From positions 152,720 to 216,719 of the forward strand of contig DATAJY010000005.1 in NCBI GenBank assembly GCA_036261885.1: a stretch of DNA of 64,000 bases, given 5' to 3'. The notes beneath the pieces are model-generated. The model did not search any database, was not told the DNA's origin, and worked only from the letters and a program-made list of their open reading frames with translations. The translations under genes and the position numbers were made by a program. Of this stretch, positions 6,380-22,671 are shown in pieces. The stretch is from Thermoanaerobaculia bacterium. Lineage in GTDB: Bacteria > Acidobacteriota > Thermoanaerobaculia > Gp7-AA8. Each line of letters begins with the position of its first letter. The first letter of the stretch is position 1.

Positions 6380-6688
6380 CTACGCCCGCGCGCGCGTGAG
6401 CGCACCTGTTCTTCCAGACCACGAATCGCGCGCTCATCGATCGTTACTTCGAGGGATGCCGTCGCGGCTGACGCGGTGGTGGGCATCGCAGTAACGCGCG
6501 CGTCGACGCGAAGCGGTGCTCCGGCGAAAGGGGTGTGTTACCGTTTCGCCGGTTCGCACCGATCCCCACAATTCGAGTTTTGCCCGCGACGAAAGGAGAT
6601 CGTCCATGTCCGTTCGCATCTGCGCGCGCCCGCTCGAGAGATGGAACGACGTGACTGATTACGTGAAGCCGGAATGGAGGAGTACAGG

Positions 6689-7234
6689 ATGTCTGCAATT
6701 CGTCTGGTGAATGAAGTTCCCGCGTCGGCCGCGGCCTCCGCGGAGTTTCGCGTGTCGCAGGGGAGCAATCAGATCGCGCGCATCGGTGTGCACAGCGGAG
6801 GGATGGCCTCGCTCCCGACGACGAGCTCGTGGCAGGTGCAAGCCTCGACCACGATGGGAGATTTCGCGCTGACCTCGAACGTGCTGGTGTTCACCGGCCC
6901 GTCGGCGGGCATCCTCGCGCAGGTGTTGAGCCAGGAAGGGTATTACGACTTTCAGATCGTCCAGTCGCCCGGCACGCACCCGTCGGCCATCGTGCTCGAG
7001 AACACGTGGCGGAATCCGGTGCAGTTCCAGCTCACGCAGCCGGGCACGCCGACGCAGATCGTGCAGGTCGTCGACGAACACAACAACACGATCGTCATCA
7101 CGGCGCAGGAGTGGTCGGTCTATGCGATCGTCAACGGCATCACCACGCCGAACGTCACGATCACCGATCCGAATGCGACCGTGACCGTGCGTCAGGACGA
7201 CAACGACGCCGGCTTCACGCTGGTCGTTTCGTAG
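6689..7234 (+). CDS. hypothetical protein (181 aa)
   Basis: ATG at 6689 preceded by GGAGG. GC3-rich frame. No recognisable motif. Confidence 0.5.
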   Translation: MSAIRLVNEVPASAAASAEFRVSQGSNQIARIGVHSGGMASLPTTSSWQVQASTTMGDFALTSNVLVFTGPSAGILAQVLSQEGYYDFQIVQSPGTHPSAIVLENTWRNPVQFQLTQPGTPTQIVQVVDEHNNTIVITAQEWSVYAIVNGITTPNVTITDPNATVTVRQDDNDAGFTLVVS

Positions 7235-7243
7235 CGGACTGCG

Positions 7244-8614
7244 TCACGGCGCCTGCCACCGCCCGTTCACCAGCGCCCTGGCGTGCAGATCGACTTCGGC
7301 CAGCCACGCGCCGCGCGTACCGACGCGGCTCAGCGGGCCGAATGAGATCGGCGGCGTCAGGGCCGTCGGGACGTTGTAGAAACCCTCCAGCGTCTCGACG
7401 AGTTTCTCGCGCGAGAGATCGCGGCCGGCGCGGCGCAATGCCTCGGCCAGAACTTTCGCGGCCGTCAGCGCCGCCGCGGCGGTCTGCGGATTCGCATCGG
7501 CGCGCGGCGTGAGCGTCTGCAACTCGCGAATGCCGGCGGCGGTGAGATGCGACGGCGCGGAAGGAAGCGCGACGACGAGCCGTCGATCGAGCGCGGCGGG
7601 AGCGGAGAAGAGCGCCTCGCCGGCGAATGACGACGGCACGAGGATGCGCGGCGGATCCGGAAACGTGGCCGCGGCGCGCAGCACTTCGTCGAGACGATTG
7701 GACGCGAGCAGCACGTTCTTCGCGTTGCGCATCGCATCGAGCGGCGTGGTGCTCTGCACTTCGAGCACGTCGTTTTCCGCGAACGCGCGCAAGGCCGCGA
7801 GCTCCTGCGCGGAACTGCCGAGGAGACGAAAGAGATATCGCTGCTCTGCCGCGTCGCCGGAGAAGGCGGCGATCGTCGGAAGCTCGCGCGATTCGAGCCA
7901 CGGCGCGAGCGACTCTTCCGCGCCGAGGAGCGAGCTGGCCGTGAGTGCGAACGGCTGCTCGGTGTCGAGAAACGTCTGCGCGGCGTCGCGGCGCTGAGTC
8001 GTCGCTGCGGGAAGCTCCGTGAAGCAGAGGTCGATGCGGCGGCCGTACAGGCCGCCCGCGCGATTGATGCTTTCGAAGAAACCGGAGACGACGTCGCGCA
8101 CGACGGCGGCGCGCGTGCGGTCGGGGGAGAGCAGCACGCCGATGCGGATCGCGTCGTCGGACAAACCGGGATCGCTGACGATGCCGAGCGTCTGCAGGTA
8201 GGCGACGAGATCGTCGGCATCGCGCGCCGACATCCGATAGCGCGGCATGACGCGATCGAGCTCGTTGCCGGCCGGATCGATGCCCATGGTGATGGCGCGC
8301 TTCAGGGTCGACGGCGTGTACGGCGGGTGCGTGCGCGACCCGATCGCATACGTTTTCGTCAGCTCGCTCCACTGCAGATTCGAAGGCTTCACGCCTCCTT
8401 CCGCGTTTCCGCGTCCGTCGTAGTCGTGGCAGTTCACGCAGCGCAGGACCGTCGCCGGAATGACCATCGTTCCTTCCGCGTCGGTGACCGCGTCGATGGC
8501 CGAGGAGCCTTCGCCGCGCACGTAGATCTTCTTGCCGTTCCGCGCATCGGCAGCGGTGGCCGTCAGCGCCAGCGCCAGCGTCGACGTCAGCAGCACGGCC
8601 GCAAGGCGCTTCAT
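7244..8614 (-). CDS. secreted cytochrome c domain fused to a periplasmic solute-binding (Peripla_BP_6/LivJ-like) domain (456 aa)
   Basis: Internal ATG at 8614 gives signal peptide 'MKRLAAVLLTSTLALALTATAADA' then haem motif 'CVNCH'. The remainder resembles type-I periplasmic binding proteins. The ATG overlaps the upstream SCO1 stop (ATGA). The 717-aa upstream extension in the ORF track is Arg-rich junk. Confidence 0.65.
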   Translation of the reverse strand: MKRLAAVLLTSTLALALTATAADARNGKKIYVRGEGSSAIDAVTDAEGTMVIPATVLRCVNCHDYDGRGNAEGGVKPSNLQWSELTKTYAIGSRTHPPYTPSTLKRAITMGIDPAGNELDRVMPRYRMSARDADDLVAYLQTLGIVSDPGLSDDAIRIGVLLSPDRTRAAVVRDVVSGFFESINRAGGLYGRRIDLCFTELPAATTQRRDAAQTFLDTEQPFALTASSLLGAEESLAPWLESRELPTIAAFSGDAAEQRYLFRLLGSSAQELAALRAFAENDVLEVQSTTPLDAMRNAKNVLLASNRLDEVLRAAATFPDPPRILVPSSFAGEALFSAPAALDRRLVVALPSAPSHLTAAGIRELQTLTPRADANPQTAAAALTAAKVLAEALRRAGRDLSREKLVETLEGFYNVPTALTPPISFGPLSRVGTRGAWLAEVDLHARALVNGRWQAP

Positions 8615-9723
8615 GGCGAGGCCGGAACGGCCGGTGCAGGCGCGGGATCGTCGACCACCGATTTCACGACGTCGATCACGGCATCGATGCCGGCCACGCC
8701 GAGGGCTTTTTTCCAGAGACCGGTGCGATCGTTGCCGATGAGGAAGAGATTCGAGTGGCCGTCGCGATTTTCGGCGAAGAGGCCGACGCGGCGGAGTGCG
8801 GCGTTCACCTGGTCGGGCGTTCCGCTGAGGAAATACCAGCCGTTCTTCGCTTCGAGCTGCGTGGCCAGCGCTTTGAGTTTCGGCGGGGTGTCGTTCTCGG
8901 GATCGACGGTGATGGAGATCAGCACGAGGTCGCGGCCGAGGCGATCGGCGAAGCGGTTCTGCATCGCGCGATAGGCGCTGGCCATGATCGGGCAGGTGGC
9001 TTTGCATTCGGCGAAGAACGCGTTCATCACCACCGTGCGTCCGTGCAGGAGATCGCGATAGAGATCGACCGTCTTGCCGTTTTGATCGACGAGCGGCAAC
9101 GTGCCGAAGTACTGCGCGGCGGGACTCTGCGCGTTGCTCGACGCGGCGGTCGCCGCAACACTCGAGGCGGTGCGTTCCTTTTCGAGCGACTGCAGCGCCT
9201 CCGCGATTTTCGCCGGCGCGGTGAAGCCGTCCATCCGCTGCCAGCGGCCGGTGCGATCGTCGCCGATGACGATGAGCGGCCCGTGATCGGTCTTGTCGGG
9301 AGTGAACGCGCCGACCGATTTGAGCAGCGTGTCGATCTCGTTCGGCTCGCCGGTGACGAGCGTCCAGCCGGGTTGGCCGCCGAGACGCGTGCGCCACGCT
9401 TCGAGCCGCGCCGGCGTGTCGTTCGGTGCGTCGAGCGTGATCGAGAGCAGCGTGATGTCTTTCGCGGAGTCGCCGAGGAGAGACTGCACCTTCGCGAACG
9501 TCGCACCGAGGGTCGGGCAGATCGTCGTGCAGCTGGTGAAGATGAAGTTGATGGCGACGATGCGATCCTTCACCAGCTCGGTGTAGAAACGCTTCGAGGC
9601 TCCGCCCTGATCGACGACGGAGACGTCGGCGATGCGCATCGGCGAATCGACGGAATCGCCGAAGGCGAGCGGTGCGCAGGCGAGCAGCGTGGCAGCGAGC
9701 AGCGATCGTTTGAAGTGGCGCAT
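8611..9723 (-). CDS. tandem SCO1/SenC-family copper chaperone / thiol-disulfide oxidoreductase (two thioredoxin-like domains, 370 aa)
   Basis: Signal peptide 'MRHFKRSLLAATLLACAPLAFG'. Two CxxxC copper-binding motifs ('FTSCTTICP' and 'FAECKATCP'), each with downstream His. Characteristic 'DH..L.LIG.DG' segments appear twice. Confidence 0.75.
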   Translation of the reverse strand: MRHFKRSLLAATLLACAPLAFGDSVDSPMRIADVSVVDQGGASKRFYTELVKDRIVAINFIFTSCTTICPTLGATFAKVQSLLGDSAKDITLLSITLDAPNDTPARLEAWRTRLGGQPGWTLVTGEPNEIDTLLKSVGAFTPDKTDHGPLIVIGDDRTGRWQRMDGFTAPAKIAEALQSLEKERTASSVAATAASSNAQSPAAQYFGTLPLVDQNGKTVDLYRDLLHGRTVVMNAFFAECKATCPIMASAYRAMQNRFADRLGRDLVLISITVDPENDTPPKLKALATQLEAKNGWYFLSGTPDQVNAALRRVGLFAENRDGHSNLFLIGNDRTGLWKKALGVAGIDAVIDVVKSVVDDPAPAPAVPASP

Positions 9724-9801
9724 GATCCCTTACCGGAAAGACGATCGAAGATGGAGAGTCGTGAAATTCACGAGGCGCGGTTTCTGCTTCCCGTGTCCAT
9801 C

Positions 9802-10128
9802 ATGCAGAAAAAATCGTTGTACGCGATGGTGGTGATTCTCGCCCTGACGTTTGCCGCGACTCTTTCGGCACAGCAGCCGCCCGTGGCCGAGCCGACGATG
9901 GCCGATGTCTGGAAGCACGCCGTCGGCAAACGCGGCACGATCCAGCACACCGACGGTTCGTGCGAGTACGTCTACACGGTCGAAGACAAAGGCGAGATGG
10001 TGATCGTGTTCGTCGGCCAGGACTACGTCGACTTCGCGCGCTTCACCACCGAGAAAGGCGAGCGCCTCACGCATCGTCTGATTCCGATGTCGAAACTGGT
10101 GATGCGGCGCTCGCGGCTGACGCAGTAG
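9802..10128 (+). CDS. small secreted hypothetical protein (108 aa)
   Basis: ATG at 9802 and signal peptide 'MQKKSLYAMVVILALTFAATLSA'. It is the only coding-like part of a longer antisense ORF. Confidence 0.45.
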   Translation: MQKKSLYAMVVILALTFAATLSAQQPPVAEPTMADVWKHAVGKRGTIQHTDGSCEYVYTVEDKGEMVIVFVGQDYVDFARFTTEKGERLTHRLIPMSKLVMRRSRLTQ

Positions 10129-10179
10129 GCATCGCCCTTCACGCGGTGCGTCCGCCGTTCGTCTTCCCTGCAGATCGAC

Positions 10180-11310
10180 ATGCGCAGGATGTTCGTCATC
10201 TCGTCGATGACGGGCGGGGGAGCGGCACGCACCACGGCGAACCTCGCCAATCACCAGGCTGCCTGCGGCGAATCGGTGCAGATCCTCACTCTGCATCAGC
10301 CGCAGCGGCCCGACGTCTATCCGCTCCATCCTTCCATCGAACGCCGTGACCTCGGCGAAGAAGCACCGAGCGCCGCGTCGATGTCGGCGGTGCTCGCGCG
10401 ATTCATGCAGCACTACCCTTCGCCGGCGGTGATCGCGCATGCGCCGGTGATCGCGCGGTTGCGCGATGCATTGCTCGAACGCACCTGCGACGTCGCCATC
10501 GGCATCGGTGATGTCACGAACATCCGCCTGCTCGTCGCCGCGCGCCACCTGCCGGTTCGCGTGATCGTCGCCGAGATGGCCGATCCCGGCGGGTATTCGA
10601 TTCTCGATTGGGAACTGCTGCGGAGACGCACCTATCCTCACGCCGAGGCGGTGGTCTGTCTGGCCGCGGAGTTCACGGAGTACTTCCGCCGGCGAGGCAT
10701 CGAGCGCGTGCATGCGATCGCCAGCCCGGTGCTGCCCGCGCCGCCGCGCCACGAAAAACGGCGCGAGCAGCTGATCGTTTCGATCGGACGGCTCGCGTGG
10801 GAGAAGAACCTCCCTCTTCTGCTGCAGGCGTTCTCCGACGTCGCGCCGCGGCATCCGGAGTGGCGGCTCGAACTGTGGGGCAACGGTCCGATGCGACGCG
10901 AGCTCGAAGGACTCGTGGCGTCGTTGCAGTTGCAGGACCGCGTTCGTCTGCCCGGCGTGACGCACGACGTTTATGAGCTGCTCGAACGCGCGGCGTTGTT
11001 CGCGATGACCTCGCGCACCGAGGGGCTGCCGAACGCGTTGTGTGAAGCGATGGCCGCGGGAGTTCCGGCGGTGGTCGCCGATTGTGGCGCGGGCGTGCGC
11101 ACCATCGTTCGCGATGGCATCGACGGCGTGCTGGTGGCACCTCGTCGCGTGGCCGTCGCCGGCGCCCTCGACGCGCTGATGCGGGACGACGAACGACGCG
11201 CGCGTCTGGCGAGCCGCGCGCCGGAAGTAGTCGAACGCTTCGCGATCGATCGCATTGCAGCAGAGTGGGACGAGCTTCTCATCTCCGGAAAGGTGGCCTA
11301 CGCATGTTGA
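10180..11310 (+). CDS. glycosyltransferase family 4 (376 aa)
   Basis: N-terminus 'MFVISSMTGGGAARTTANLAN' is GT4-like. C-terminal 'EGLPNALCEAMAAGVPAVVAD...GIDGVLV' matches the GT-B E-x7-E region. Confidence 0.8.
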   Translation: MRRMFVISSMTGGGAARTTANLANHQAACGESVQILTLHQPQRPDVYPLHPSIERRDLGEEAPSAASMSAVLARFMQHYPSPAVIAHAPVIARLRDALLERTCDVAIGIGDVTNIRLLVAARHLPVRVIVAEMADPGGYSILDWELLRRRTYPHAEAVVCLAAEFTEYFRRRGIERVHAIASPVLPAPPRHEKRREQLIVSIGRLAWEKNLPLLLQAFSDVAPRHPEWRLELWGNGPMRRELEGLVASLQLQDRVRLPGVTHDVYELLERAALFAMTSRTEGLPNALCEAMAAGVPAVVADCGAGVRTIVRDGIDGVLVAPRRVAVAGALDALMRDDERRARLASRAPEVVERFAIDRIAAEWDELLISGKVAYAC

Positions 11311-11972
11311 CCTCAGCAGAGAAAGCGGCTTACACGCAGGACGGTGTGCTTTTCCCGATTCACGTGTTGCGCGAGGGAGAGATCGCGCGCTATCGGGCCA
11401 AGGTCGAGCAGTCGCTCGCCAGCGATCCCGAGAACGCGAAGCTGCCGCACCTCAAATACGACTGGGCGCTCGAGCTGGCCACGCATCCCTTCGTCGTCGC
11501 GGCCGCGGAATCAGTGCTCGGCAGAACCGCCATCTGGGGCGCGATGGTGTTGCGCAAGGAGCCGCACAGCCGCAGCTTCGTCTCGTGGCATCAGGACGGC
11601 GCGTATCGCGAGTTCAAGCCGGGCGACTGCGTGACCGCGTGGATCGCGCTGGCCGACAGCGTGCCGGAGAACGGCTGCATGCAGGTCATCCGCGGCTCGC
11701 ATCACGCGCGCCTGCCGCACTTCGATCAGCCGGAGCCGGACAACATGATCCGCCTCGGCAAGCACATCGAATCGGAGATCGATCCGGCGATGATTACCGA
11801 CGTCGTGTTGCGCGCCGGCGAGATGTCGCTGCATCACAACGACATCGTGCACGGCTCGCAGCCGAACACCTCCGACCGCGCGCGCATCGGCTTCATCGTC
11901 CGCTTCATGAAGTACGGCCTGACGTGGACCGAGTGCCCGCTCGTGATTCCCGGAACGGTCACCGCCGCATGA
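11304..11972 (+). CDS. phytanoyl-CoA dioxygenase (PhyH) family Fe(II)/2-oxoglutarate oxygenase (222 aa)
   Basis: 'WHQDGAY...TAWIALADSVPENGCMQVIRGSH' and 'HHNDIVHGSQPN' His-Asp...His facial-triad pattern. The start overlaps the GT4 stop and the stop overlaps the next ATG (ATGA). Confidence 0.7.
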   Translation: MLTSAEKAAYTQDGVLFPIHVLREGEIARYRAKVEQSLASDPENAKLPHLKYDWALELATHPFVVAAAESVLGRTAIWGAMVLRKEPHSRSFVSWHQDGAYREFKPGDCVTAWIALADSVPENGCMQVIRGSHHARLPHFDQPEPDNMIRLGKHIESEIDPAMITDVVLRAGEMSLHHNDIVHGSQPNTSDRARIGFIVRFMKYGLTWTECPLVIPGTVTAA

Positions 11973-12967
11973 AGGTGTTGCTGACCGGCAATCACGTCTA
12001 TCCCGCCGCCGCGCAGAAGAGCGCCGGGCGCAGGGTGACGGAGCTGCCGTCCGGCTCCGCGCAGCGGCTGCAGGATCTGACCGCGCGCGGGCTGGTCGAG
12101 GCCGGACACGAAGTGGTCTACTACTTGACCAAACCGCCGGCGGGCCGTCCGCCGCGCGGCGTGACCGTCGTCGATCGCTGGATCACGAACGTCGACGTCG
12201 TGCACACGCACGTGCAGCGCGAAGAGTTCGAAGACGAAGCGCGCGCGCTGCAACTGCCGTTCATCTCCGTGCTGCATCTCCACCCGAGCTCGCGTCCGGC
12301 GGCGATGCCGGAGCCGCGCGAGGAGTGGGTGTATGTCTCCCGTTTTCTCGCCGAAGCGCTCGGCGGCACGCGTTTCGTGCACAACGGCGTCGATCCGGCC
12401 GACTACGCGTACTCCGAGGCGAAGGACGACTACGTGCTCTTCCTCTCGTCGATGGACTGGTGCGTGGAGAAAGGGCTCGACGTCGCCATCGCGCTCTCGA
12501 AGCGGATCGGCTTCCGCCTCGTCGTCGCCGGCAGCGCGCGAACCGAAGAGCGGCTCGCTGCGGCGATGGCGTTGTGTGCCGAGGGGGGAGCCGAGTACGT
12601 CGGCGACGTGCAGGGAAACGAAAAGGCGGAACTGCTCGCGGGTGCACGGGCGTTACTCCACCCTTCGCGCTATCAGGAAGCGTGTCCGCTCTCGATCATC
12701 GAGGCCCTGATGTCGGGCACGCCGGTGATCACGACGCCGTGGGGCGCATCGGCCGAGTTGATGACGCGTGACGCCGGCTTTCTCTGCCGCGACGAGAGCG
12801 ATTATGTCGATGCATTCGCGCGTCTCGGCGAGATCGCGCCGCGCGCGTGCCGCGACCACGCGCTGGCCCGATTTCACTACCGGCGCATGGTGGCCGGATA
12901 CCTGCGCGAGTACGAAACCGCCATCGGCGCGTTCACAACTGCGGGCGCTCATCCGTCAACTGAGTAA
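11969..12967 (+). CDS. glycosyltransferase, GT-B/GT4-like (332 aa)
   Basis: 'EACPLSIIEALMSGTPVITTPWGASAELM' is a GT4 C-terminal sugar-donor motif. The ORF track fuses this frame with junk upstream; the ATG at 11969 is coupled to the PhyH stop. Confidence 0.7.
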   Translation: MKVLLTGNHVYPAAAQKSAGRRVTELPSGSAQRLQDLTARGLVEAGHEVVYYLTKPPAGRPPRGVTVVDRWITNVDVVHTHVQREEFEDEARALQLPFISVLHLHPSSRPAAMPEPREEWVYVSRFLAEALGGTRFVHNGVDPADYAYSEAKDDYVLFLSSMDWCVEKGLDVAIALSKRIGFRLVVAGSARTEERLAAAMALCAEGGAEYVGDVQGNEKAELLAGARALLHPSRYQEACPLSIIEALMSGTPVITTPWGASAELMTRDAGFLCRDESDYVDAFARLGEIAPRACRDHALARFHYRRMVAGYLREYETAIGAFTTAGAHPSTE

Positions 12968-13056: not shown

Positions 13057-16000
13057 ATGCTCCGTCGCCCGGCCTTGTTCCTGTTGATCCTCGGCGCGCT
13101 CGTGCCGCTGGTGGCGCAGGCAGACAATCCCTGCACGCCCCAGAACACCACGCGAGCCGACGTGGTCGCGCTCGATCAGGCGTTCTACAACAATCGCCTC
13201 GGTGCCTTCCAATCGGGAGGCACGATCTACGCGCTGCGCCGCGACGTGGTCAGCAACGCCGGTGGAGCGAGCGCGCTCACGGCCGGCAAGGTGATGCTGC
13301 GTCCGGACAAGCGTCCGCGCCCGATCGTGCTGCGCGTCAACGAAGGGAGCTGCCTCGAGATCGCGTTCCAGAACCTCCTCGCTCCCGTGCCGCAGGTCTC
13401 GGTCTTTCCCGCCGCCTCACCGTGGGAAAACCAGAGCACGATGTCGAACGCCTACACCTCGACCGGCGGCGCGTCGACCGATCTGCAGAAATGGGGAACG
13501 CAGACCACCCAGGGACCGACGCGCTACGCCGGCGTGCACGTGATGGGCTTGAACCTCGTCAGTGCGAAAGACGGCAGCGGCGCGCCGATCGAGGCGATCG
13601 CCGCCGACGGCTCCTGGACCGGTGCGAACGACATCACCGCGAACGCGCGCGGCCCGCGGGCCAGCGGTCTCGTCGCACCAGGCGAGAAGATCACGTATAC
13701 GCTGTTCGCCCGCGAGAACTCCGAAGGCTCGTATCTGCTCTACAGCACCGGCGCGACGAATGGTGCGTCGCAGGATTTCGGCGGGCAGTTGATGCAGGGC
13801 CTCTTCGGCTCCGTCACCGTGCAGCCGGGAAGATCGGAGTGGTATCGCAGCCAGGTCACGCGCGATGAACTGCTCAAGGCGACGTACACCGCGGCGGGAC
13901 AGACGCTCACGCCGAGCAGCAAAGCGCCGGTGAAGATCAACGGCAAGAGCGCGAAAGTGTGGAACTGGAAGGTGTCGGCCACCGACACGCGGGAAGCGGT
14001 CCTGCTGAATGCGGACGGCGATCCGGTTTCCGGCAGCAGCAGCGCCTACCTCCACACCACGAAAGGACAGCCATACATCAACTACGGCGCCACCGATTCG
14101 ACGCGGCAATGCGGCGGCGAGCCGCTGCCGGTGCTGAAGATGACGAACGGAAAGGGCGAGATCTGCCACAGCGATCTCACCGCGATCATCACCGGCCCGA
14201 ACGCGGGTCTGGTGATCGATCCGCCGTACGCGGGCGTGCCGTCGACGCCGAATCCACGCGAGCCGTGGCGCGAGTTCGCCATCCACTATCACGACGATTT
14301 CCTCGTCACGCAGGCGTTCCCGCAACAGCAGCCGGGCAACAGTCTGGCCGGCACGCTGAACGCCGGCCGCGATTACTTCGCGATCAACTACGGCATCGGC
14401 GGCATCGCCGCGGAGGTGCTGGCCAATCGGCTCGGCGTCGGCCCGATGTATCAGTGCGCGACGTGCAAGTTCGAAGAGTTCTTTCTCAGCTCCTGGACCG
14501 TCGGCGACCCGGCCATGGTGGTCGACGTCCCGGCCAACAACGGCACCGGCACCGGACCGAAAGCGACCAAGGCGCTCTTTCCGGATGATCCGTCGAACGT
14601 CTACCACAGCTACGTCGGCGATCACGTGATCTTCCAGATCCTGCACGCCGGCACGAACATCACCCACGTGCATCACCTGCACGCGCAGCAGTGGCTGCAT
14701 TCGCCGCGCAATGCGAACAGCGCGTATCGCGACAGCCAGATGATCAGCCCGGGCGCGTCGTACACGCTCAACCACGTGTACAACGGCAGCGGCAACGTCA
14801 ACAAAACGGTCGGCGACTCGATCTTCCACTGCCACTTCTATCCGCACTTCGCGCAGGGCATGTGGTCGATGTGGCGCGTGCACGATGCGTTCGAAGCCGG
14901 CACGATCCTCAATGCCGACGGCACGGTGCGCAAGGGATGGAACCGCGCACTTCCGGACGGCGAGATCGCCAGCGGAACGCCGACGCCGGGCCTCGTGCCG
15001 CTGCCGACGATTCCGATGGCGCTGCCGCCGGCGCGCACGCAGATCGTCGACGTCACGATTCCGGGGCAGACCAAGCCGGTCGGTTACACGGTGCAGGTCC
15101 ATCCCGACGACAAGACCGCGACTCCGGGCTATCCGTTCTTCATTCCCGGCGTGGCCGGACAGCGCGCGCCGCATCCGCCGCTCGATCTCGCCTGGGACGA
15201 AGACGGCAACGGCAAGCCGCGCAAGGATTCGAAGGGCAACACGATTTATCTCGACGGCGGATTGCCGCGGCACATCTCGCTCTTCGATACCGACATCACC
15301 GAGAAGCACACGCGCTGGGACTTCACCAAAGACAACGGCGCGATCACGGCCGTGCAGCTGCCGGAGGATGGCACCGCGAGCGAGCGGCAGGCCATGACCG
15401 TGCACGAGCAGCGCAACCATCCGTCGTTCACGCCGGAAGGGAAGCCCGCCTCGTTCGTGCTCAACGGCATGAAGCGCAAGCACGGCGCGCCGTACGCGAA
15501 CCCGAACGTCAATCTCGACGGCACGCCGCACTGCAATGACGACGTGCCGCCGGCGATGGTGCTCGATCCGAAGGACGGCGAGCAGCCATGCCTGATCCGC
15601 TACAAGGCGGCGGCCATTCAGATCGACGCGGTCTTCAACAAGAAAGGATGGCATTACCCGCAGTCGCGCATCCTCTCGCTGTGGGGCGACGTGAAGGACA
15701 CGATGGCCAACAAGCGGATTCCGCAGCCATTCTTCTTCCGCGCGAACAGCGATCAGATCATCGAGTACTGGCACGCCAATCTCGTTCCGAACTACTACGA
15801 GCTCGACGACTTCCAGGTGCGTACGCCGACCGACGTCATCGGCCAGCACATTCACCTCGTGAAGTTCGACGTGACGTCGTCCGACGGCGCGGGCAACGGC
15901 TACAACTACGAAGACGGCACGTTCAGCCCCGATGAAGTGCGGGAGACCATCGAGGCCATCAATCAGTGTCCGGACCATCAGCCGTGCGCACAGTGCCCGG

Positions 16001-19000
16001 CCGGTCTGTTCCCGATGCTCTCGATCACCGGCAGCGGCGCGAAGCCGGGCGGCACGCGCACCTGCCTGAAACCGAAGGCGATTCCGTATTTCGGCGACGG
16101 TCCGGATGGACGCTGGGTCGGGGCGCAGGCGACGATTCAGCGCTGGGCCGCCGATCCGGTGTTCGGCGAGAAGCAGGCCGACAGTCTCATCGAATATCCG
16201 AAAGGCGAGCGCCGCATCGATCGCACGCTGCGCACGGTCTTCACGCACGATCACTTCGGTCCGTCGACGCATCAGCAGGTCGGGCTCTACGCCGGCCTGG
16301 TGGTCGAGCCGAAGCACACCTACTGGCTCGACGGCGAAACCGGCGAGCATTACGGCTCGAACCAGAATCGCCCCATCGGTGCAAACGGACTGGCGCCGTT
16401 CGACGGCGGTCCGACCGGATGGCACGCGACGATCCTGCATCCCAACAAGCCGAGCGATGACTATCGCGAGTTCGTGCTCGAGTTCCAGGACCGGCAGCTC
16501 GCCTACACCTCGAGCAGCATCGGCAAGGCCGTGCCGTACGACGGAGGCACCTCGGCGTACACCGGCTGGTCCGATCCGCAGTTCGCGATCTCGCCGCCGG
16601 CCACCGGCACCGGGCCGCGTCCGCCGTGGCCGGTGCTGGTCACGAACTCCTTCGCCACCGGCTCGTACTCGGTCAACTATCGCAACGAGCCGCTGACGTT
16701 CCGCGCGTTCGGCGGCACGCCGAACCAGACGCCGAACGCCGCCGGCTCGGATCTCTCGAATGCCTTTGCCTCGATTCCGCGGCTCGATCCGCAACTGAAC
16801 ACGCAACCGGCCGCCGGCTCACCGATCACCACGACCGGCGCGAATGCGTTCACGTTCCCGCCGCCGTTCCGCGGCGCCGGTGCGAACGATCCGTACACGC
16901 CGCTGCTGCGCGCGTATGACGGAGACAACGTACAGCTGCGCACGCTCGTCGGCGCGCACATGTCGCCGCACTTCTTCAACGTGCACGGCGTGAACTGGCT
17001 CTTCGAGCCGGCCGAGGAGGACTCGGGGTGGAGATCGGCGCAGGGGATGGGCATCTCCGAGCACTACGAAATGATCTTCACCATGCCGCGCACCGGCGGC
17101 CCGACGTCGGACTATCTCTATGAAGCGAGCTCCGACACCACCGGCCGGAAGAACGGCAACTGGGGTCTGCTGCGCGCGTACAGCCAGGATCAGACCGACC
17201 TGCAGCGCCTGCCGAACAATCCGGCCACCGCACCGGCCACGGCCGGACCGCCGGCGGGATGTCCGGGGCCCGACGTCGCTCCGGCGCGCGAGTACCGCGT
17301 GCGGGCGATGACCATCCAGCAGGCCACCGGCGCGAACTGGCTCACGTACAACGCGCGTGGTGCGGCCGGCAAGAACGGCGGCGAACAGCTCGTCGATCCG
17401 AACGCGATCATCTATGTCGATGAAGCGGATCTCGTGGACGGGAAGCTGAAGAACCCGAACCGCGTCGAGCCGCTGATTCTCCGCGCGAAAGCGGGCGAGT
17501 GTGTTTCGGTGACGCTCACGAACTCACTGCCGGGCGATACCGTCGGTGCAACGGTGACGACGACGCCGCCGTGGCCGACGCAGTTCACGCTCACCGCGAC
17601 GCAGAACGCCATCGACGACATGCTGGTCTTCTTCGTCGGCGCCGGTTCGACCACGCCGCGCCAGAGCTCGTACAGCACCGAGTTCCAGCTGCTCTTCAAC
17701 ACCAACACGTTCGGCTATCAGCTTCCGCCCTCGGGTGTCGGCAGCAGCACCACGAACAACGGCAACAACACCTACACCATCGTCTCCGGCAACACGTACA
17801 TCGTTTCGCGCACGAGCAACACCACGCTCAACGTCACGGTGGCGCAGCCGGTCGCGATCAGCACGTCGAAAAACGTCGGCCTGCATGCATCGCTGCTCGC
17901 GTATGACGTGCGCAGCAACGACGGCATGAACGTTGGCGCGAATCCGACGCAGACGCTCACGCCCGGCCAGTCGCGCACCTACAAGTGGTACGCGGGGCAG
18001 TACTTCCTCGAAAACGACGTCTGGACGCCGCGGCCGGTTGAGTACGGCTCGGTCAATCTCAACCCCTCCGATCCGCTGATGCAGCATCCGAAGGGACTCA
18101 TCGGCGCGCTGATCATCGAGCCGCGGACCACGACGAAGTGGACCGTCGACGAGAACTCGAACGCCTCCGCGCGCGTCGAGTACACCGAAGACGGCGCGGC
18201 GAAGTCGTTCCGCGAATTCGTGGCCATCATCTCCGACGACATCATCGGCATGCAGAAGACCGGCGGCCAGCCGGTGCAGGCCGCGCCGGCGGTGACCGTC
18301 GACGATGGCAGTGGCGGTGTGGACAATCCGGTCGACAGCGGCAGCAGCGGCACGGCCGATGCCGGCAAGACCATCACCATCTCCGGCGTGGTCATCAACG
18401 GCACGATCGCCTGGGCGCTCGACGGCACGCAGAAGCCGAACAACACCACGTACGACGTTTCGCCCGGCGACACCGTCGTCTTCAACGTGACGAACGGGAA
18501 GCACGGCGTGGCGTTCCTGCCGGGACAGCCGGCGTTCGACGCCTTCTTCGATGTCGTCTCCGGCGGCAATCTCCTGAAGGCCAGCCCGAACGGCATCACC
18601 GGTTCATGGGGCACCGACGCGTTCAACGGACCGGCGTCTCTGGTCACGCTGCGCGTGAAATCGACCGCCACCGGCAACCTGCCGTTCGAATGCACGCAGC
18701 ACAAGACGAACATGGCCGGCACGCTGCGCGTCGTTTCGAGCAGCGGCAGCACGCTCGCCGGCGACATCGTCAACAGCCAGGTGGTGTGGGCGTTCAACGG
18801 CGTTCCGAAGGCGAACAACTCGACGTACAACGTGAAGGCGGGCGACATCATCACGGTGACGTCGCAGAACGGTCTGCACGGCATCGCCTTCCTGCAGGGG
18901 CAGACCGCATTCGAAGCATTCTTCGACGTGCTGTCGGGCGGGAGCCTGCTGATCCCGAATCCGAACGGCATCACCGGCTCGTGGGGCACGCTGCCGCAGA

Positions 19001-20826
19001 ACGGTCCGGTCACGCTGCTCACGCTGCAGGTGAAGGCGACGGCCACCGGCAAGCTGCCGTTCGAATGCTCGCAGCACAAGCAGAACATGGCCGGCACGTT
19101 CCAGATCAGCGGGGCGCCCACGCCGACGCACACCATCACCGGCGATCTCGTCAACGGCACGCCGACCTGGCTGCTCGACGGGAAGGCGATGCCGAACAAC
19201 AGCTCCTATCCGATGAAGCCGGGCGACATCATCCTGTTCGACGTGAAGAGCGGCACGCACGGCGTGACGTTCACGCAGGGACAGACGGCCTTCAACAACT
19301 TCTTCAACGTCCTCGACGGCGCGAGCAAGTTGATCGCGAATCCGAACGGCATCACCGGCGGCTGGGGCACGCCCGCGGTCGCGGGACCGGCCACGCTGAT
19401 CACCATTCAGGTGAAAGCGAGCGCCAAGGGGACGCTCATCTTCTGGTGCACGCAGCACAAGCAGAACATGGCCGGCACGTTCTCGGCCGGTCCGCAGACG
19501 TGGAACGTCACCGGCGACAACGCGCCCGGTCCGGTGTGGAAGCTCAATGATGCAGTGCAGTCCAACAACGCCTCGTATCCGATCAGCTCCGGCGACACGG
19601 TGGTCTTCTCCGTCGCCACCGGCCGTCACGGCGTGGCGTTCATCACCGGCCGTGCGGCGTTCGACAACGTCTTCGACGTCGTCTCGAGCACCGCGCCGCT
19701 GAAAGACAACCCGAACGGCATCGCCGGCTCTTACGGCACCGATGCCTTCAACGGACCGCAGGCGCTGATCACGGTGAAAGTGAAGCCGAATGTCGCGCCG
19801 ACGAACCTGCCGTTCTGGTGCACGCAGCACAAGGCGAACATGGCCGGTACGTTCAAGGTGAACGGCGGCGTGCCGACGCTCACCGCGGTGCCGACGCAGT
19901 TCACGCGCGCGTTCAACTACAAGACCGAGCCGCTGCAGTATCGCTACGTCGATCAGAACGCGTTCCTCAACCCCGCCTCGTATCCGCTCGGCATCATGCG
20001 CGCGGTCTCGAACCAGCTCGTGCTGGCCGATCCGCAGACTCCGGTGTTCGCGGCCGCGGCAGGGGAGCCGGTGCGCATTCGCATGCTCCATCCGGCCGGC
20101 CTCGACGAACAGGTGCTGACGCTGCACGGTCACGCGTGGCAGGAAGAGCCGTACGAGAACGGTACGCAGTCTTCCGTCATCGGGCACAACAAGTTCTCGC
20201 AATACCTCGGCTCGCGCGATGCGTTCGGTCCGAACGTCTCGTGGGACCTCGTGATCGACGAGGCGGGCGGGCGCGCGCAGACGAAGGGCGATTACATCTT
20301 CCGCACCTTCATCGGCACCGACTTCCTCTTCGGCCTCTGGGGCATCCTGCGGGTCGGCCATGCGAATCGCGACGTCGTCACCGTGAACTACTTCCCGCCG
20401 CCGAGCGCCGGCTCGAATTTCCCGGCCGGCCTGCGCGGCACGACCACCGTCAACACGTCGACCGGCCGCATGGCCGATCGCATCGAGATCTACGCCGGCT
20501 CTTCGGCCAGCGGCACGCCGTTCGACACGGTGCGCATCGACAAGTCGACCGGCTTCTGGTCGTCGACGAAGACGATGCCGAATCCGCCGCTCTTCGTGCA
20601 GTCGGTGTCGTGCTCCGATGCGAACTGCACGTCGAAGACGCCGTGGGGCTCGCGCGTGATGGAGACGTACATCCCGACCACGACCATTCCGGCCGGCAGC
20701 ATTGCGCAGCCGATGATCCAGCTGCCGCCGTCACCGATCGATCTGTTCAAGCCGGCGCGTCCTGACACGATCGTGCAGCCGCAGCCGACGACCACTCCGA
20801 CGCACGAGCATCCGCCCGAACACTGA
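13057..20826 (+). CDS. giant secreted multicopper-oxidase-like protein carrying four tandem cupredoxin (type-1 copper) domains (2589 aa)
   Basis: GAGGAGG RBS and signal peptide 'MLRRPALFLLILGALVPLVAQA'. MCO copper motifs: 'IHYHDD' (HxH), 'HVHHLH' (HxxHxH) and 'HCHFYPHFAQGM' (HCHxxxHxxxxM), with a second set 'GQHIHLVKFD', 'THDHF' and 'LTLHGHAW'. Residues ~1770-2270 hold four ~125-aa repeats, each with 'G.HGV.F', 'NPNGI.G.WGT' and 'F(E/W)C(T/S)QHK.NMAGT', the His/Cys/His/Met ligand set of a blue-copper site. Confidence 0.8.
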   Translation: MLRRPALFLLILGALVPLVAQADNPCTPQNTTRADVVALDQAFYNNRLGAFQSGGTIYALRRDVVSNAGGASALTAGKVMLRPDKRPRPIVLRVNEGSCLEIAFQNLLAPVPQVSVFPAASPWENQSTMSNAYTSTGGASTDLQKWGTQTTQGPTRYAGVHVMGLNLVSAKDGSGAPIEAIAADGSWTGANDITANARGPRASGLVAPGEKITYTLFARENSEGSYLLYSTGATNGASQDFGGQLMQGLFGSVTVQPGRSEWYRSQVTRDELLKATYTAAGQTLTPSSKAPVKINGKSAKVWNWKVSATDTREAVLLNADGDPVSGSSSAYLHTTKGQPYINYGATDSTRQCGGEPLPVLKMTNGKGEICHSDLTAIITGPNAGLVIDPPYAGVPSTPNPREPWREFAIHYHDDFLVTQAFPQQQPGNSLAGTLNAGRDYFAINYGIGGIAAEVLANRLGVGPMYQCATCKFEEFFLSSWTVGDPAMVVDVPANNGTGTGPKATKALFPDDPSNVYHSYVGDHVIFQILHAGTNITHVHHLHAQQWLHSPRNANSAYRDSQMISPGASYTLNHVYNGSGNVNKTVGDSIFHCHFYPHFAQGMWSMWRVHDAFEAGTILNADGTVRKGWNRALPDGEIASGTPTPGLVPLPTIPMALPPARTQIVDVTIPGQTKPVGYTVQVHPDDKTATPGYPFFIPGVAGQRAPHPPLDLAWDEDGNGKPRKDSKGNTIYLDGGLPRHISLFDTDITEKHTRWDFTKDNGAITAVQLPEDGTASERQAMTVHEQRNHPSFTPEGKPASFVLNGMKRKHGAPYANPNVNLDGTPHCNDDVPPAMVLDPKDGEQPCLIRYKAAAIQIDAVFNKKGWHYPQSRILSLWGDVKDTMANKRIPQPFFFRANSDQIIEYWHANLVPNYYELDDFQVRTPTDVIGQHIHLVKFDVTSSDGAGNGYNYEDGTFSPDEVRETIEAINQCPDHQPCAQCPAGLFPMLSITGSGAKPGGTRTCLKPKAIPYFGDGPDGRWVGAQATIQRWAADPVFGEKQADSLIEYPKGERRIDRTLRTVFTHDHFGPSTHQQVGLYAGLVVEPKHTYWLDGETGEHYGSNQNRPIGANGLAPFDGGPTGWHATILHPNKPSDDYREFVLEFQDRQLAYTSSSIGKAVPYDGGTSAYTGWSDPQFAISPPATGTGPRPPWPVLVTNSFATGSYSVNYRNEPLTFRAFGGTPNQTPNAAGSDLSNAFASIPRLDPQLNTQPAAGSPITTTGANAFTFPPPFRGAGANDPYTPLLRAYDGDNVQLRTLVGAHMSPHFFNVHGVNWLFEPAEEDSGWRSAQGMGISEHYEMIFTMPRTGGPTSDYLYEASSDTTGRKNGNWGLLRAYSQDQTDLQRLPNNPATAPATAGPPAGCPGPDVAPAREYRVRAMTIQQATGANWLTYNARGAAGKNGGEQLVDPNAIIYVDEADLVDGKLKNPNRVEPLILRAKAGECVSVTLTNSLPGDTVGATVTTTPPWPTQFTLTATQNAIDDMLVFFVGAGSTTPRQSSYSTEFQLLFNTNTFGYQLPPSGVGSSTTNNGNNTYTIVSGNTYIVSRTSNTTLNVTVAQPVAISTSKNVGLHASLLAYDVRSNDGMNVGANPTQTLTPGQSRTYKWYAGQYFLENDVWTPRPVEYGSVNLNPSDPLMQHPKGLIGALIIEPRTTTKWTVDENSNASARVEYTEDGAAKSFREFVAIISDDIIGMQKTGGQPVQAAPAVTVDDGSGGVDNPVDSGSSGTADAGKTITISGVVINGTIAWALDGTQKPNNTTYDVSPGDTVVFNVTNGKHGVAFLPGQPAFDAFFDVVSGGNLLKASPNGITGSWGTDAFNGPASLVTLRVKSTATGNLPFECTQHKTNMAGTLRVVSSSGSTLAGDIVNSQVVWAFNGVPKANNSTYNVKAGDIITVTSQNGLHGIAFLQGQTAFEAFFDVLSGGSLLIPNPNGITGSWGTLPQNGPVTLLTLQVKATATGKLPFECSQHKQNMAGTFQISGAPTPTHTITGDLVNGTPTWLLDGKAMPNNSSYPMKPGDIILFDVKSGTHGVTFTQGQTAFNNFFNVLDGASKLIANPNGITGGWGTPAVAGPATLITIQVKASAKGTLIFWCTQHKQNMAGTFSAGPQTWNVTGDNAPGPVWKLNDAVQSNNASYPISSGDTVVFSVATGRHGVAFITGRAAFDNVFDVVSSTAPLKDNPNGIAGSYGTDAFNGPQALITVKVKPNVAPTNLPFWCTQHKANMAGTFKVNGGVPTLTAVPTQFTRAFNYKTEPLQYRYVDQNAFLNPASYPLGIMRAVSNQLVLADPQTPVFAAAAGEPVRIRMLHPAGLDEQVLTLHGHAWQEEPYENGTQSSVIGHNKFSQYLGSRDAFGPNVSWDLVIDEAGGRAQTKGDYIFRTFIGTDFLFGLWGILRVGHANRDVVTVNYFPPPSAGSNFPAGLRGTTTVNTSTGRMADRIEIYAGSSASGTPFDTVRIDKSTGFWSSTKTMPNPPLFVQSVSCSDANCTSKTPWGSRVMETYIPTTTIPAGSIAQPMIQLPPSPIDLFKPARPDTIVQPQPTTTPTHEHPPEH
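18370..19870 (+). repeat. four in-frame tandem repeats (~375 bp each) encoding cupredoxin-like domains inside the giant MCO gene
   Basis: Peptide repeats starting 'TITISGVVINGT', 'SGSTLAGDIVNS', 'APTPTHTITGDL' and 'PQTWNVTGDNAP', each ending in '...LPFxCTQHKxNMAGTF'. The DNA-level similarity is visible, e.g. recurring 'aatccgaacggcatcaccgg' and 'cagcacaag..gaacatggccggcacg'. Confidence 0.7.
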
Positions 20827-20832
20827 ACCCGC

Positions 20833-22671
20833 ATGAGGCACAAAGCACTCGCTGCCACGTTTCTGCTCCTCGCCGCCGCGACCTTCGCGCGCGGCGAGGA
20901 GTCCGTCGAGACCGCGCCGGTCGTGCGCAAAGCCGTGCACGACGGCGTCGCGGTGAAGATGACCATCGATCACGCCGCGGCCGCCGAGGCGCAACCGTTG
21001 CGCGGGGGGGATGACGTGGTGGTGCGTTTCGAGATCACCGACGCCGCCACCGGCGCGCCGTTGCGCGGCGCGAAACCGGCGGCGTGGATGGACGGCGGTC
21101 ACGATCGCCCGTCCGGCTGCCGCGACCGCATCAACATCTACGCGGGCGGCGGTTTTCTCGGGCGCGCCGATGTGAATCTCAATACGTTTCACGTGCTGGC
21201 GATGAATGACGACGCGACGTTGACGGTCGTCGATCCGCTGTTCGGATTCGGCGGCACGAAACTGCTCGCACTGGTGGAGCTGCCGAGTCCCGCCAACGAC
21301 TGGGTGCTCACCGATGACAGCAACCAGTTGTTCGTGTCGATGGCGAAAGCGAAGCAGGTCGCGCTCGTCGATACCGCGGCCTGGCGGGTGGCGAAGAGCG
21401 TTTCGTTCCGCACTTCTCCGGGCCGCATCGTGCTGCAACGCGATGAAGGGTATCTCTGGGTCGCAACCGAAGACGCGCTCGTGGCGTTGCGCACGAAAGA
21501 CCTCGGCATCGCCGCATCGCTGCCGCTGCCGAGCGGCGCGCACGACGTCGTCGTCTCGCACGACAATCGTTTCGTCTTCGCCACCAGCGCCGAGGGCGAT
21601 CGCGTGACGGTGGTCGACGTCGCGAAGCTCGCGGTCGTACGGGAGGTGAAGGTTGCGCGGCCGGTCTCGATCGCCTGGTCCTCGCTCGCGAACACCGCGT
21701 ACGTCGCGAGCGAGAAAGGGGCGATCGTCGCGGTGGGGACGCGCGGTGTGCTCGCGACCATCGACGTCGGCGCGGGCGTCTCGATGGTTCGCGTCACTCC
21801 CGACGCGCGGCTGGCGCTGGCCATCAATCCGCTCGAGAGCTCGATCGATGTGATCGACGTCTCCACGAATCGTTTGATGCAGAGCGGCGAGCTGCCTGGC
21901 GTTCCGGATCAGATCGCGTTCTCGCGCACGATCGCGTACGTCCTGCTGCGCGATTCCGAACAGGTACAGATGATCGTGCTCTCCGAGCTCGGTCACAAAG
22001 ACGCGCCGATCGCGATCGCCGACGTCGGCGGCGGACGGCGCGCGTTCGAGACCGATGCCACCTCTTTCGCACCGTCGGTCGTGCAGGCCGTCGGCGGAGA
22101 CTCGGTGCTCTTCGCGAACGGTCCCGACCGGGTCATCTACTACTACCAGGAAGGGATGGCCGCGCCGATGGGAAACTTCAACAACTACGGCCGGCGGCCG
22201 CGTGCGGTGATGGTCGTCGATCGCAGCCTGCGCGAGCGGCGTCCCGGCGTGTATGAAACGTCGGCGCGTCTGGCCGATGCCGGCCGCTATGACGTCGCGT
22301 TCCTCCTGGACGTGCCGCGCGCCGTCGATTGTTTCAATGTCGCCGTGGCCGAAGCACCGCGTACGAAATCGACGCGGCCGGTCGTGCATGCGGCGCTCGT
22401 CGATGATGGTGCCCGCAGGAGCGGCGCGAAATCGTCTCTGCGATTCCGTCTGACCAACGAAGCAGGCGCGCCGATCGAAACGCTCGGCGATTCGCTCGTG
22501 CTCATCTTCGCGCCCGGCATCTGGCAGGGGAGAGAACAACCGCGCCCCTTGGGCGACGGTACGTTCGCCGTCGACTTCACGCCCCCCGCACCCGGCAACT
22601 ACGCGATGTATCTCAACGCCGCCTCGCAGGGACTCTCCTACACGTTCGTCGGCTCGGTCTCCGTGCAGTGA
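20833..22671 (+). CDS. secreted YVTN-type beta-propeller repeat protein (612 aa)
   Basis: Starts 6 bp after the MCO stop. Signal peptide 'MRHKALAATFLLLAAATFARG'. Reiterated ~40-aa units such as 'QLFVSMAKAKQVALVD', 'YLWVATEDALVALR', 'FVFATSAEGDRVTVVD', 'AYVASEKGAIVAVG' and 'LALAINPLESSIDVIDV', typical of YVTN/NHL-like propellers. Confidence 0.65.
   Translation: MRHKALAATFLLLAAATFARGEESVETAPVVRKAVHDGVAVKMTIDHAAAAEAQPLRGGDDVVVRFEITDAATGAPLRGAKPAAWMDGGHDRPSGCRDRINIYAGGGFLGRADVNLNTFHVLAMNDDATLTVVDPLFGFGGTKLLALVELPSPANDWVLTDDSNQLFVSMAKAKQVALVDTAAWRVAKSVSFRTSPGRIVLQRDEGYLWVATEDALVALRTKDLGIAASLPLPSGAHDVVVSHDNRFVFATSAEGDRVTVVDVAKLAVVREVKVARPVSIAWSSLANTAYVASEKGAIVAVGTRGVLATIDVGAGVSMVRVTPDARLALAINPLESSIDVIDVSTNRLMQSGELPGVPDQIAFSRTIAYVLLRDSEQVQMIVLSELGHKDAPIAIADVGGGRRAFETDATSFAPSVVQAVGGDSVLFANGPDRVIYYYQEGMAAPMGNFNNYGRRPRAVMVVDRSLRERRPGVYETSARLADAGRYDVAFLLDVPRAVDCFNVAVAEAPRTKSTRPVVHAALVDDGARRSGAKSSLRFRLTNEAGAPIETLGDSLVLIFAPGIWQGREQPRPLGDGTFAVDFTPPAPGNYAMYLNAASQGLSYTFVGSVSVQ

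Follow-up and report, generated by a model that had tools for sequence, protein, structure and literature searches.

Bacterial manganese (Mn) oxides control trace-metal and carbon cycling, and Pseudomonas putida GB-1 is the best genetic model of their formation. Its putative mnxG operon comprises six genes (PMC11409713 Table 4, Fig 3; PMC8218464 Fig 2c), which encode, in this order, the oxidase MnxG (PputGB1_2447), a YVTN beta-propeller, two SCO1/SenC proteins, a substrate-binding protein with a cytochrome c domain and a SurA-N protein (PMC11409713); of these, the oxidase gene alone has been studied. Related arrangements have been described elsewhere: MofC of Leptothrix discophora (mofABC) and the MofC-like GSU1397 of Geobacter sulfurreducens join a cytochrome c to a periplasmic binding domain and are encoded beside a MofA/OmpB oxidase (PMC5566968), the ompB cluster of G. 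sulfurreducens has the SCO1/SenC gene GSU1398 next to GSU1397 (He et al. 2017, PMC5566968), and a SCO1/SenC gene comes after mcoA of P. putida (PMC11409713). A large secreted multicopper oxidase (MCO), one or more SCO chaperones and a cytochrome c fused to a periplasmic binding protein (PBP) domain is a recurrent combination, then, and one that has already been noticed. Here we analyse two overlapping genes on the minus strand, between positions 7244 and 9723 of a 64,000-nt stretch from a Thermoanaerobaculia bacterium (Acidobacteriota; assembly GCA_036261885.1, contig DATAJY010000005.1, positions 152,720 to 216,719), the whole of which we call the window. The two genes are very probably the accessory half of a PpMnxG-type MCO gene set. 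The set itself is that of the mnxG-type operon and is known already; in this genome its SCO pair is fused and its genes are rearranged.

The upstream gene (gene 1; 8611..9723, minus strand, 370 aa) encodes a predicted secreted protein with two SCO1/SenC domains, an SCO-A/SCO-B fusion, and the downstream one (gene 2; 7244..8614, minus strand, 456 aa) a predicted secreted cytochrome c–PBP fusion. The TGA stop of gene 1 (8613-8611) and the ATG of gene 2 (8614-8612) are shared as ATGA (8611..8614, minus strand), as can be read directly from the sequence itself, and this overlap couples the translation of the two genes; a 4-nt overlap of both genes is also called in three related loci (L001, L004 and L005). 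Gene 1 starts at an ATG with AAGGGA in front of it, and its GC content at third codon positions (GC3) is 0.84. For gene 2, a longer open reading frame (ORF) of 717 aa (7244..9397) was rejected: it is an upstream extension through an Arg-rich frame, and the homologues begin at the ATG at 8614. Scanning 6500-10300 for sigma-70 promoters and terminators gave no promoter and one terminator-like site against 2.6 expected, and an NCBIfam scan of both proteins returned no meaningful match.

The relation to the published operon is best seen through Pseudomonas sp. WOUb67 (locus L077), where Pfam annotates a 1959-aa MCO, a 658-aa beta-propeller (Cytochrom_D1/Lactonase/YNCE), two SCO1-SenC proteins, a 558-aa protein with Cytochrom_C and Peripla_BP_6 domains and a SurA-N protein, in exactly the gene order of the six-gene mnxG operon of GB-1. 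Three of these proteins have a single match each in the window, reciprocal in every case: MnxG (6.5e-254), the beta-propeller (4.4e-86) and the cytochrome-PBP protein (8.5e-60). The Pseudomonas SurA-N and type II secretion ATPase (T2SSE) proteins had no match among the six-frame ORFs of the window. The T2SSE gene follows the mnxG-type operon in Pseudomonas (L077:12987-14792), which fits the reported Gsp-type secretion of the Mn-oxidising factor. As a separate observation, the C-terminus of the Pseudomonas beta-propeller (L077:6524-8500, aa 592-624) gives weak FixH/YtkA-like matches; FixH is a member of the FixGHIS copper-delivery set for cbb3 oxidase.

The presumed client in the window is a giant MCO of MnxG type, 2589 aa long (13057..20826, plus strand). 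In the PDB it matches a single protein, MnxG from the Mnx complex of Bacillus (9bxa_A, E 7.2e-90); it carries HxH and HCHxxxH...M motifs and aligns at 34% identity with the MnxG-like protein from Pseudomonas (aa 29-1763, plus aa 2285-2433); Pfam gives a sub-threshold Cu-oxidase_2 match (E 0.0087). A YVTN/YNCE beta-propeller, the second gene of mnxG-type operons, begins 7 nt past the mnxG stop (20833..22671, plus strand; Pfam YNCE E 7.8e-10), and the encoded protein ends in an immunoglobulin-like segment. The original prediction, made from the letters of the sequence without database searches, had pointed to a giant copper oxidase nearby, and such an enzyme is indeed there, as its MnxG match and copper motifs show. 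The link that was drawn between this oxidase and the gene pair also stands. It is upheld by synteny across genomes, as set out below; in the window itself the oxidase is not in a single adjacent operon with the pair, which lies on the opposite strand at a distance of 3.3 kb, with genes for a GT4 glycosyltransferase, a PhyH-like dioxygenase and a GT1 glycosyltransferase in between.

The synteny comes from a genome scan, with one genome per species and a 12-sequence alignment of gene 2 as query, which yielded 80 loci whose six-frame ORFs were searched with the window proteins; in all, such searches covered 86 related loci. In 76 of the 80, the cytochrome-PBP gene comes right after one or two SCO genes. 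For 57 loci the sequence reaches at least 9 kb upstream; of these, 56 have SCO, 50 a MnxG-like giant within 10 kb and 44 a beta-propeller within 10 kb; the last count is an underestimate, because the propeller lies beyond the flank in the subclade that resembles the window. The co-directional set (giant MCO, beta-propeller, two SCO genes or a fused one, cytochrome-PBP) occurs in Thermoanaerobaculia and other Acidobacteriota, Verrucomicrobiota, Chloroflexia, Saprospiraceae, a deltaproteobacterium, Azoarcus, Oceanisphaera litoralis, a Pantoea and about 30 cultured Pseudomonas of the putida group. Locus L004, for example, has a giant of 1724 aa, a 603-aa protein, a tandem SCO and the cytochrome-PBP protein, all overlapping and co-directional, and L003 has the order giant, DUF5659, beta-propeller, SCO, SCO, cytochrome-PBP. 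The layout of L001 is that of the window, and the same split into two units recurs across a subclade of Thermoanaerobaculia. The SCO–cytochrome pair is also kept where no giant is found within 10 kb (L005, L012, L014, L017, L018, L021, L031, L034 and L057), and judged by gene order the SCO–cytochrome link is the tightest in the set. This synteny lends support to what the original prediction had guessed from proximity, a role in copper delivery or redox relay.

Several loci deserve mention in their own right. In L034 (3838-11455) and L057 (8677-11474), the pair stands without a MnxG-like gene and without a beta-propeller within 10 kb, and in L034 a 387-aa tandem AhpC/Redoxin protein is encoded 5 kb upstream of it. 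L005 has the beta-propeller, SCO and cytochrome genes and lacks the giant, although the genes upstream correspond to those of L004. What look like fusions of beta-propeller and SCO in L022, L028 and L056 were set aside as artefacts, either stop-to-stop ORFs in high-GC DNA or products of frameshifted long-read assemblies, and were not used.

Gene 1 matches the Pfam model SCO1-SenC (PF02630) in two stretches (E 6.2e-33, 114 bits, cut-off 22.8). The SCO-A domain covers aa 28-185 (9169..9642, minus strand), with CTTICP at nt 9531-9514 and His147 at nt 9285-9283, and SCO-B covers aa 200-360 (8644..9126, minus strand), with CKATCP at nt 9006-8989 and His323 at nt 8757-8755. Both halves match Sco proteins in a PDB sequence search (4hde with aa 43-150; B. 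subtilis Sco, 1xzo/1on4, with aa 212-315). An AlphaFold2 model built with 48 homologues has a mean predicted local distance difference test score (pLDDT) of 89.8 and shows two thioredoxin-like domains linked via a long helix, whose orientation relative to each other is not fixed, as the predicted template modelling score (pTM) of 0.55 indicates; in a Foldseek comparison of this model with the PDB, the best 27 matches are all Sco proteins (target TM-scores 0.63-0.79). An identical protein (P0121) is listed at NCBI as 'SCO family protein [Thermoanaerobaculia bacterium]'. A homologue search returned 1138 proteins, and what we say of tandem SCO proteins refers to the best 120 of these, which are 329-421 aa long (one partial, 275 aa), about 50% identical and cover about 89% of the query. 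The copper ligands C65, C69, H147, C240, C244 and H323 are unchanged in 120/120, the second domain having lost none of its Cys and His, and they are equally invariant where SCO-A and SCO-B are separate genes, in Pseudomonas and Oceanisphaera. A lipoprotein anchor (LLAC, Cys16) was considered and rejected, the Cys being present in just 6/120 homologues. Because this lipobox is not conserved, the product is probably a Sec-secreted soluble protein, going by a signal peptide judged by eye.

The two domains are not interchangeable. Separate hidden Markov models (HMMs) were built from domain 1 and domain 2 and scored on the loci with split SCO genes: in every such locus, including all Pseudomonas, the domain-1 HMM scores highest on the upstream gene and the domain-2 HMM on the downstream one (for example, 173 vs 141 bits for domain 1 vs domain 2 on an upstream gene and 125 vs 134 bits on a downstream gene). 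L003 has two separate SCO genes (230 and 211 aa) in the very position of the window's fused gene. On the strength of this sorting by order and of the L003 layout, SCO-A and SCO-B are, by sequence comparison, an old paralogue pair of fixed order, and gene 1 is their in-order A-B fusion. Tandem SCO proteins are spread over Acidobacteriota, Verrucomicrobiota, Chloroflexia, Bacteroidota and Alphaproteobacteria; the fused form is found in part of Thermoanaerobaculia, Ca. Angelobacter, Chthoniobacterales and other Verrucomicrobiota, a Chloroflexia metagenome-assembled genome, Saprospiraceae, Rhodothermaceae and an alphaproteobacterium. In the split proteins of Pseudomonas (L077:8497-9815), Oceanisphaera (L039:8615-9906) and L003 (6690-8014), both SCO-A and SCO-B have His-rich stretches just past the signal peptide, such as HAGHDHKGH and HQHHHHHKDD, which the fused window protein does not have.

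These data bear on whether the SCO domains handle copper at all. They could instead be copper-free thiol peroxidases or thiol-disulfide oxidoreductases that protect or fold a Cys-rich oxidase, as might be suggested by weak Pfam matches of gene 1 to AhpC-TSA (E 5.5e-5, below cut-off) and Thioredoxin, by the peroxiredoxins and ResA/TlpA proteins that rank below the Sco proteins in the Foldseek list, and by the tandem AhpC/Redoxin protein near the pair in L034. We find this hard to credit given that neither domain varies in the distal His of the Sco copper site, that the structural matches are headed by Sco proteins alone and that the split homologues have His-rich tails, which are typical of metal handling. 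If copper is handled, it could still be for another client: the tandem SCO could serve the assembly of cytochrome c oxidase (CuA/cbb3), the cytochrome being a respiratory carrier and the proximity of the oxidase coincidental. SCO1/SenC proteins are best known for cytochrome oxidase assembly, the PDB matches of gene 1 are such proteins, and tandem SCO occurs outside the cluster too: in L006 (6531-11155), a tandem SCO (P0184, about 50% identical) ends the order DUF6662, FMN_bind, ApbE, 156-aa ORF, SCO. Such a housekeeping role is nevertheless very improbable in our view, with no cox/cco genes among the scanned ORFs of the window or the annotated neighbours in related loci and with the MnxG and beta-propeller neighbourhood kept across at least six phyla, which is beyond chance. 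A cox/cco neighbourhood is the usual context of SCO genes and no strict requirement.

The second gene of the pair was also read correctly at the outset. Both Pfam models exceed their cut-offs in gene 2: Cytochrom_C at residues 58-143 (E 3.2e-6, 28.8 bits, cut-off 21.3) and Peripla_BP_6, in a split match (E 8.2e-14, 52.5 bits, cut-off 31.7). The class-I cytochrome c domain covers aa 25-145 (8180..8542, minus strand), with CVNCH at nt 8440-8426 and the axial Met123-Pro124 at nt 8248-8243; the remainder, aa 146-456 (7247..8179, minus strand), is by Foldseek a type-I (LivJ/AmiC-like) PBP domain with a shortened lobe 2. In an alignment of 47 sequences (35-91% identity), C59, C62, H63, M123 and P124 are unchanged in 47/47, the haem motif and its Met being thus fully conserved. 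Because CxxCH and M123-P124 are invariant, the haem domain is, as judged from the alignment, a bona fide His/Met mono-haem domain. Compared alone with PDB sequences, it gave weak matches, the best (E 0.06) to the cytochrome subunit of a membrane dehydrogenase. Thus the two SCO domains with CTTICP and CKATCP, the ATGA overlap at 8611..8614 and the join of CVNCH to a LivJ-type domain were all borne out, by Pfam and by the sequence. What did not hold was the view that these architectures are unusual. The best 120 of the 1138 gene 1 homologues are all tandem SCO proteins; a search with gene 2 over 1.84 billion cluster representatives (50% identity) found 685 clusters at E<=1e-30 and 1742 at E<=1e-10. 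The cytochrome-PBP join is already the fifth gene of the GB-1 mnxG operon (PMC11409713), and the same two domains are described together for the MofC-like proteins (PMC5566968). A further gene 2 search returned 394 proteins; of the 120 listed, nearly all have PF00034 and PF13458, and these are mostly from Thermoanaerobaculia and Blastocatellia.

The PBP domain raises the question of a ligand. Could the protein be a true solute receptor for an amino acid, amide, organic acid or metal chelate, supplying an ABC transporter whose genes lie elsewhere or working as a sensor? The type-I PBP fold and the Peripla_BP_6 score above cut-off speak for it, as do the longer homologues that match the Pfam model almost from end to end (positions 3-335 of 343 in the 558-aa Pseudomonas protein) and a few PBP residues (R192, F222 and R402) that are invariant in the 47-sequence alignment. 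Yet the structures that Foldseek retrieves (LivJ, LivK, AmiC, UrtA and aromatic-acid substrate-binding proteins; E 6e-14 or weaker), among them ligand-bound ones, are only 11-18% identical, and therefore no ligand can be inferred for gene 2. Relative to homologues of 500-560 aa, lobe 2 of the window protein is without some 45-60 residues after aa 284 (7247-7760, minus strand), a strand-helix-strand unit, and three homologues (P0010, P0051 and P0083) have lost still more. Conservation is also far lower here than in the haem domain, with 6% against 25% of columns at least 90% conserved. Finally, no ABC permease or ATPase genes were found in the window or near the loci with Pfam-annotated neighbours (L001, L003, L004, L005 and L077). 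A receptor is thus improbable, and the current database name of the family, 'ABC transporter substrate-binding protein', probably misleads. Because transporter genes are missing nearby, conservation is low and lobe 2 is reduced, the domain does not resemble a transporter receptor. In the AlphaFold2 model (pLDDT 92.6, pTM 0.88) it packs rigidly on the haem domain, in what looks like a scaffold.

As far as sequence and gene order can tell, we propose that the pair most likely supplies the oxidase with copper in the periplasm and that the haem domain exchanges electrons with the chaperones. All four products would be exported to the periplasm (signal peptides were judged by eye). In the window, the SCO–cytochrome pair very probably forms a small operon of its own, divergent from the unit that runs from the glycosyltransferase and PhyH genes to mnxG and the beta-propeller. 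SCO-A and SCO-B would work as a pair without redundancy, taking up copper and loading it into the many copper sites of the MnxG-like oxidase while that enzyme is still in the periplasm. A division of labour is suggested by the fact that the two are conserved, non-interchangeable paralogues: one SCO domain may hold cysteines reduced, as proposed for SCO1/SCO2 and TlpA/ScoI. This would not be without precedent, since paired non-redundant SCO paralogues are known among the classical Sco chaperones. The haem protein of gene 2, whose synthesis the ATGA overlap ties to that of the chaperone, would then be a one-electron partner, either for a Cu(II)/Cu(I) switch or for thiol poising, and the fast-evolving, partly eroded PBP domain would be a scaffold for docking rather than the receptor of an ABC transporter. 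We see the cytochrome as a partner of the chaperones because its gene stays with the SCO genes more consistently than with the oxidase gene, and because the pair persists without a giant within 10 kb and appears to have its own operon in the window. Published genetics agree with this proposal without singling it out: in Pseudomonas, Mn oxidation depends on the cytochrome c maturation (ccm) genes and on a TlpA-like thiol-disulfide isomerase (PMC11409713; de Vrind 1998, as cited in PMC11930936). Taken as a whole (the identity of the genes, copper delivery and the haem as redox partner of the chaperones), this is the explanation that we favour, with a confidence slightly better than even; the details of the mechanism we put forward more tentatively, as even chances at the very best.

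The cytochrome might, alternatively, partner the oxidase itself, either connecting the type-1 copper of MnxG with the respiratory chain, in the window possibly by way of the four inserted repeats described below, so that metal oxidation feeds respiration, or priming the enzyme, with the SCO domains still loading the copper. Electron transfer during Mn oxidation is in fact the original, proposal-stage idea for MofC in Leptothrix mofABC, as PMC5566968 presents it. The haem domain has a general class-I electron-transfer signature, and its best PDB match, weak as it is, belongs to a membrane dehydrogenase; the ccm requirement fits such a relay equally well. The window oxidase itself offers a further point. 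An insertion of about 520 aa (aa 1764-2284; 18346-19908, plus strand), absent from the Pseudomonas MnxG homologue, consists of four repeats of about 125 aa, each with G.HG(V/I).F ... C(T/S)QHK.NMAGT, whose His/Cys/His/Met pattern recalls type-1 copper sites. Cupredoxins are classic partners of c-type cytochromes. We could not accept these repeats as confirmed cupredoxins, as Pfam gave nothing and the PDB plastocyanin matches have E values of 0.26-0.34, and they stay an observation at the level of motifs. Apart from this lack of significance and their absence from Pseudomonas, the relay has to face the tighter linkage of the cytochrome gene to SCO than to the oxidase and the fact that an MCO hands the electrons of its substrate straight to O2 at the trinuclear centre. 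The Mn(II)/Mn(III,IV) couples are, moreover, more positive than a typical cytochrome c, so that transfer from Mn to haem would be uphill. We therefore regard a relay as unlikely, though it is the rival that we take most seriously.

A bolder synthesis would make the beta-propeller, SCO-A, SCO-B and the cytochrome c-PBP protein an obligatory periplasmic module of giant MnxG-type oxidases, kept across phyla, in which the haem explains the need for ccm and, in Thermoanaerobaculia, the cytochrome and the four cupredoxin-like modules wire electrons from extracellular Mn(II), another metal or a humic donor into respiration. We consider this a long shot; were it true, Acidobacteriota that are widespread in soils and sediments would conserve energy by oxidising metals.

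Several points weigh against copper delivery to a MnxG-type Mn oxidase with haem support as we propose it. In the window, the oxidase is on the other strand, three unrelated genes apart, so that its co-expression with the pair is putative. The pair stands without a MnxG-like gene within 10 kb in L005, L014, L034 and L057, and the tandem SCO of L006 has no cytochrome-PBP, beta-propeller or MnxG gene near it; the client may for this reason not always be MnxG. Only one SCO gene is kept in L009, L019, L024 and L033. MCOs, CueO for one, can acquire copper with no chaperone of their own, and MCO-type Mn(II) oxidation requires no cytochrome. Our searches of the literature found no experiments on the accessory genes of the mnxG operon and nothing specific on MnxG in Acidobacteria. 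We know of no member of the Acidobacteriota for which Mn oxidation has been shown, and Mn as substrate of the acidobacterial oxidase is putative.

The remaining genes of the window are less easily tied to the set. Between its two halves lie, by Pfam, the GT4 glycosyltransferase gene (10180-11310, plus strand), the PhyH-like dioxygenase (inside an ORF at 11082-11972, plus strand) and the GT1 glycosyltransferase gene (11969-12967, plus strand), a trio that recurs between the SCO–cytochrome genes and the giant in L001/L007-L009 and at the P0010 locus; the PhyH-like frame overlaps a long ORF at 11255-12967. These are lineage-specific genes whose membership in the set is uncertain, and their products might modify the oxidase. 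The pair is flanked by a convergent 186-aa ORF without Pfam match (6674-7234) and a divergent small secreted ORF (9808-10128). Further upstream are genes for a DUF6519 protein (134-1480, plus strand), a CarboxypepD_reg/Big_1 repeat protein (1838-3940, plus strand) and a Castor/Pollux-type RCK channel (4400-6379, minus strand), none of which recurs in the related loci. On the far side of the oxidase, the window encodes an extracytoplasmic function (ECF)-type sigma factor (33271-34083), two very large Ser/Thr kinases (35912-39103 and 47480-51352, minus strand; open frames of 1063 and 1290 aa), the second with an AAA_16 ATPase domain, and a protein with a Peptidase_S74 (endosialidase-chaperone) domain (46028-47479). 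A tyrosinase-domain protein (PF00264, E 1.4e-32; 43685-45373, plus strand) is a second copper enzyme of secreted type in the window.

The accessory genes of the mnxG operon are thus conserved well beyond Proteobacteria, in Acidobacteriota, Verrucomicrobiota, Chloroflexia and Bacteroidota, and all their metal ligands are under strict selection. Given this wide conservation, the tight SCO–cytochrome linkage and the selection on the ligands, these helpers are good candidates to explain two long-standing observations, why Mn oxidation is stimulated by copper and why it requires the ccm genes. The analysis also flags the Thermoanaerobaculia as possible uncultured oxidisers of Mn or other metals.

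How, then, does this locus compare with the systems from which we set out? With the GB-1 mnxG operon it shares the same five protein families, the order of the accessory genes and the copper and haem ligands. It differs in that its SCO genes are fused, its PBP domain is shorter, and its oxidase is some 630 aa longer than that of Pseudomonas through the four-repeat insertion; and the set forms two divergent units, with GT4-PhyH-GT1 inserted, instead of a single co-directional operon. The MofC systems likewise combine a large secreted MCO with a cytochrome c-PBP protein and, in Geobacter, SCO1/SenC, gene 2 being likened to MofC/GSU1397 by the architecture described for these; they have a MofA/OmpB oxidase rather than MnxG, the peptidyl-prolyl isomerase MofB instead of the beta-propeller, and one SCO or none. 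In the Bacillus Mnx complex (MnxG, MnxE and MnxF; PDB 9bxa), the catalytic subunit is homologous to the window giant, whereas the accessory subunits are the small MnxE and MnxF, and the SCO, beta-propeller and cytochrome modules have no counterpart there. With classical Sco proteins (B. subtilis Sco/YpmQ, B. japonicum ScoI with TlpA, human SCO1/SCO2 and Streptomyces Sco), gene 1 has in common the thioredoxin-like fold, the CxxxC motif and the distal His. Unlike them, it has two domains in one soluble secreted chain, no cox genes nearby, a coupled cytochrome c-PBP gene and, presumably, an MCO as client. A non-respiratory client would not be foreign to the family: Streptomyces Sco serves the cuproenzyme GlxA, and the tandem SCO of Thermoanaerobaculia may serve its giant oxidase in a comparable way.

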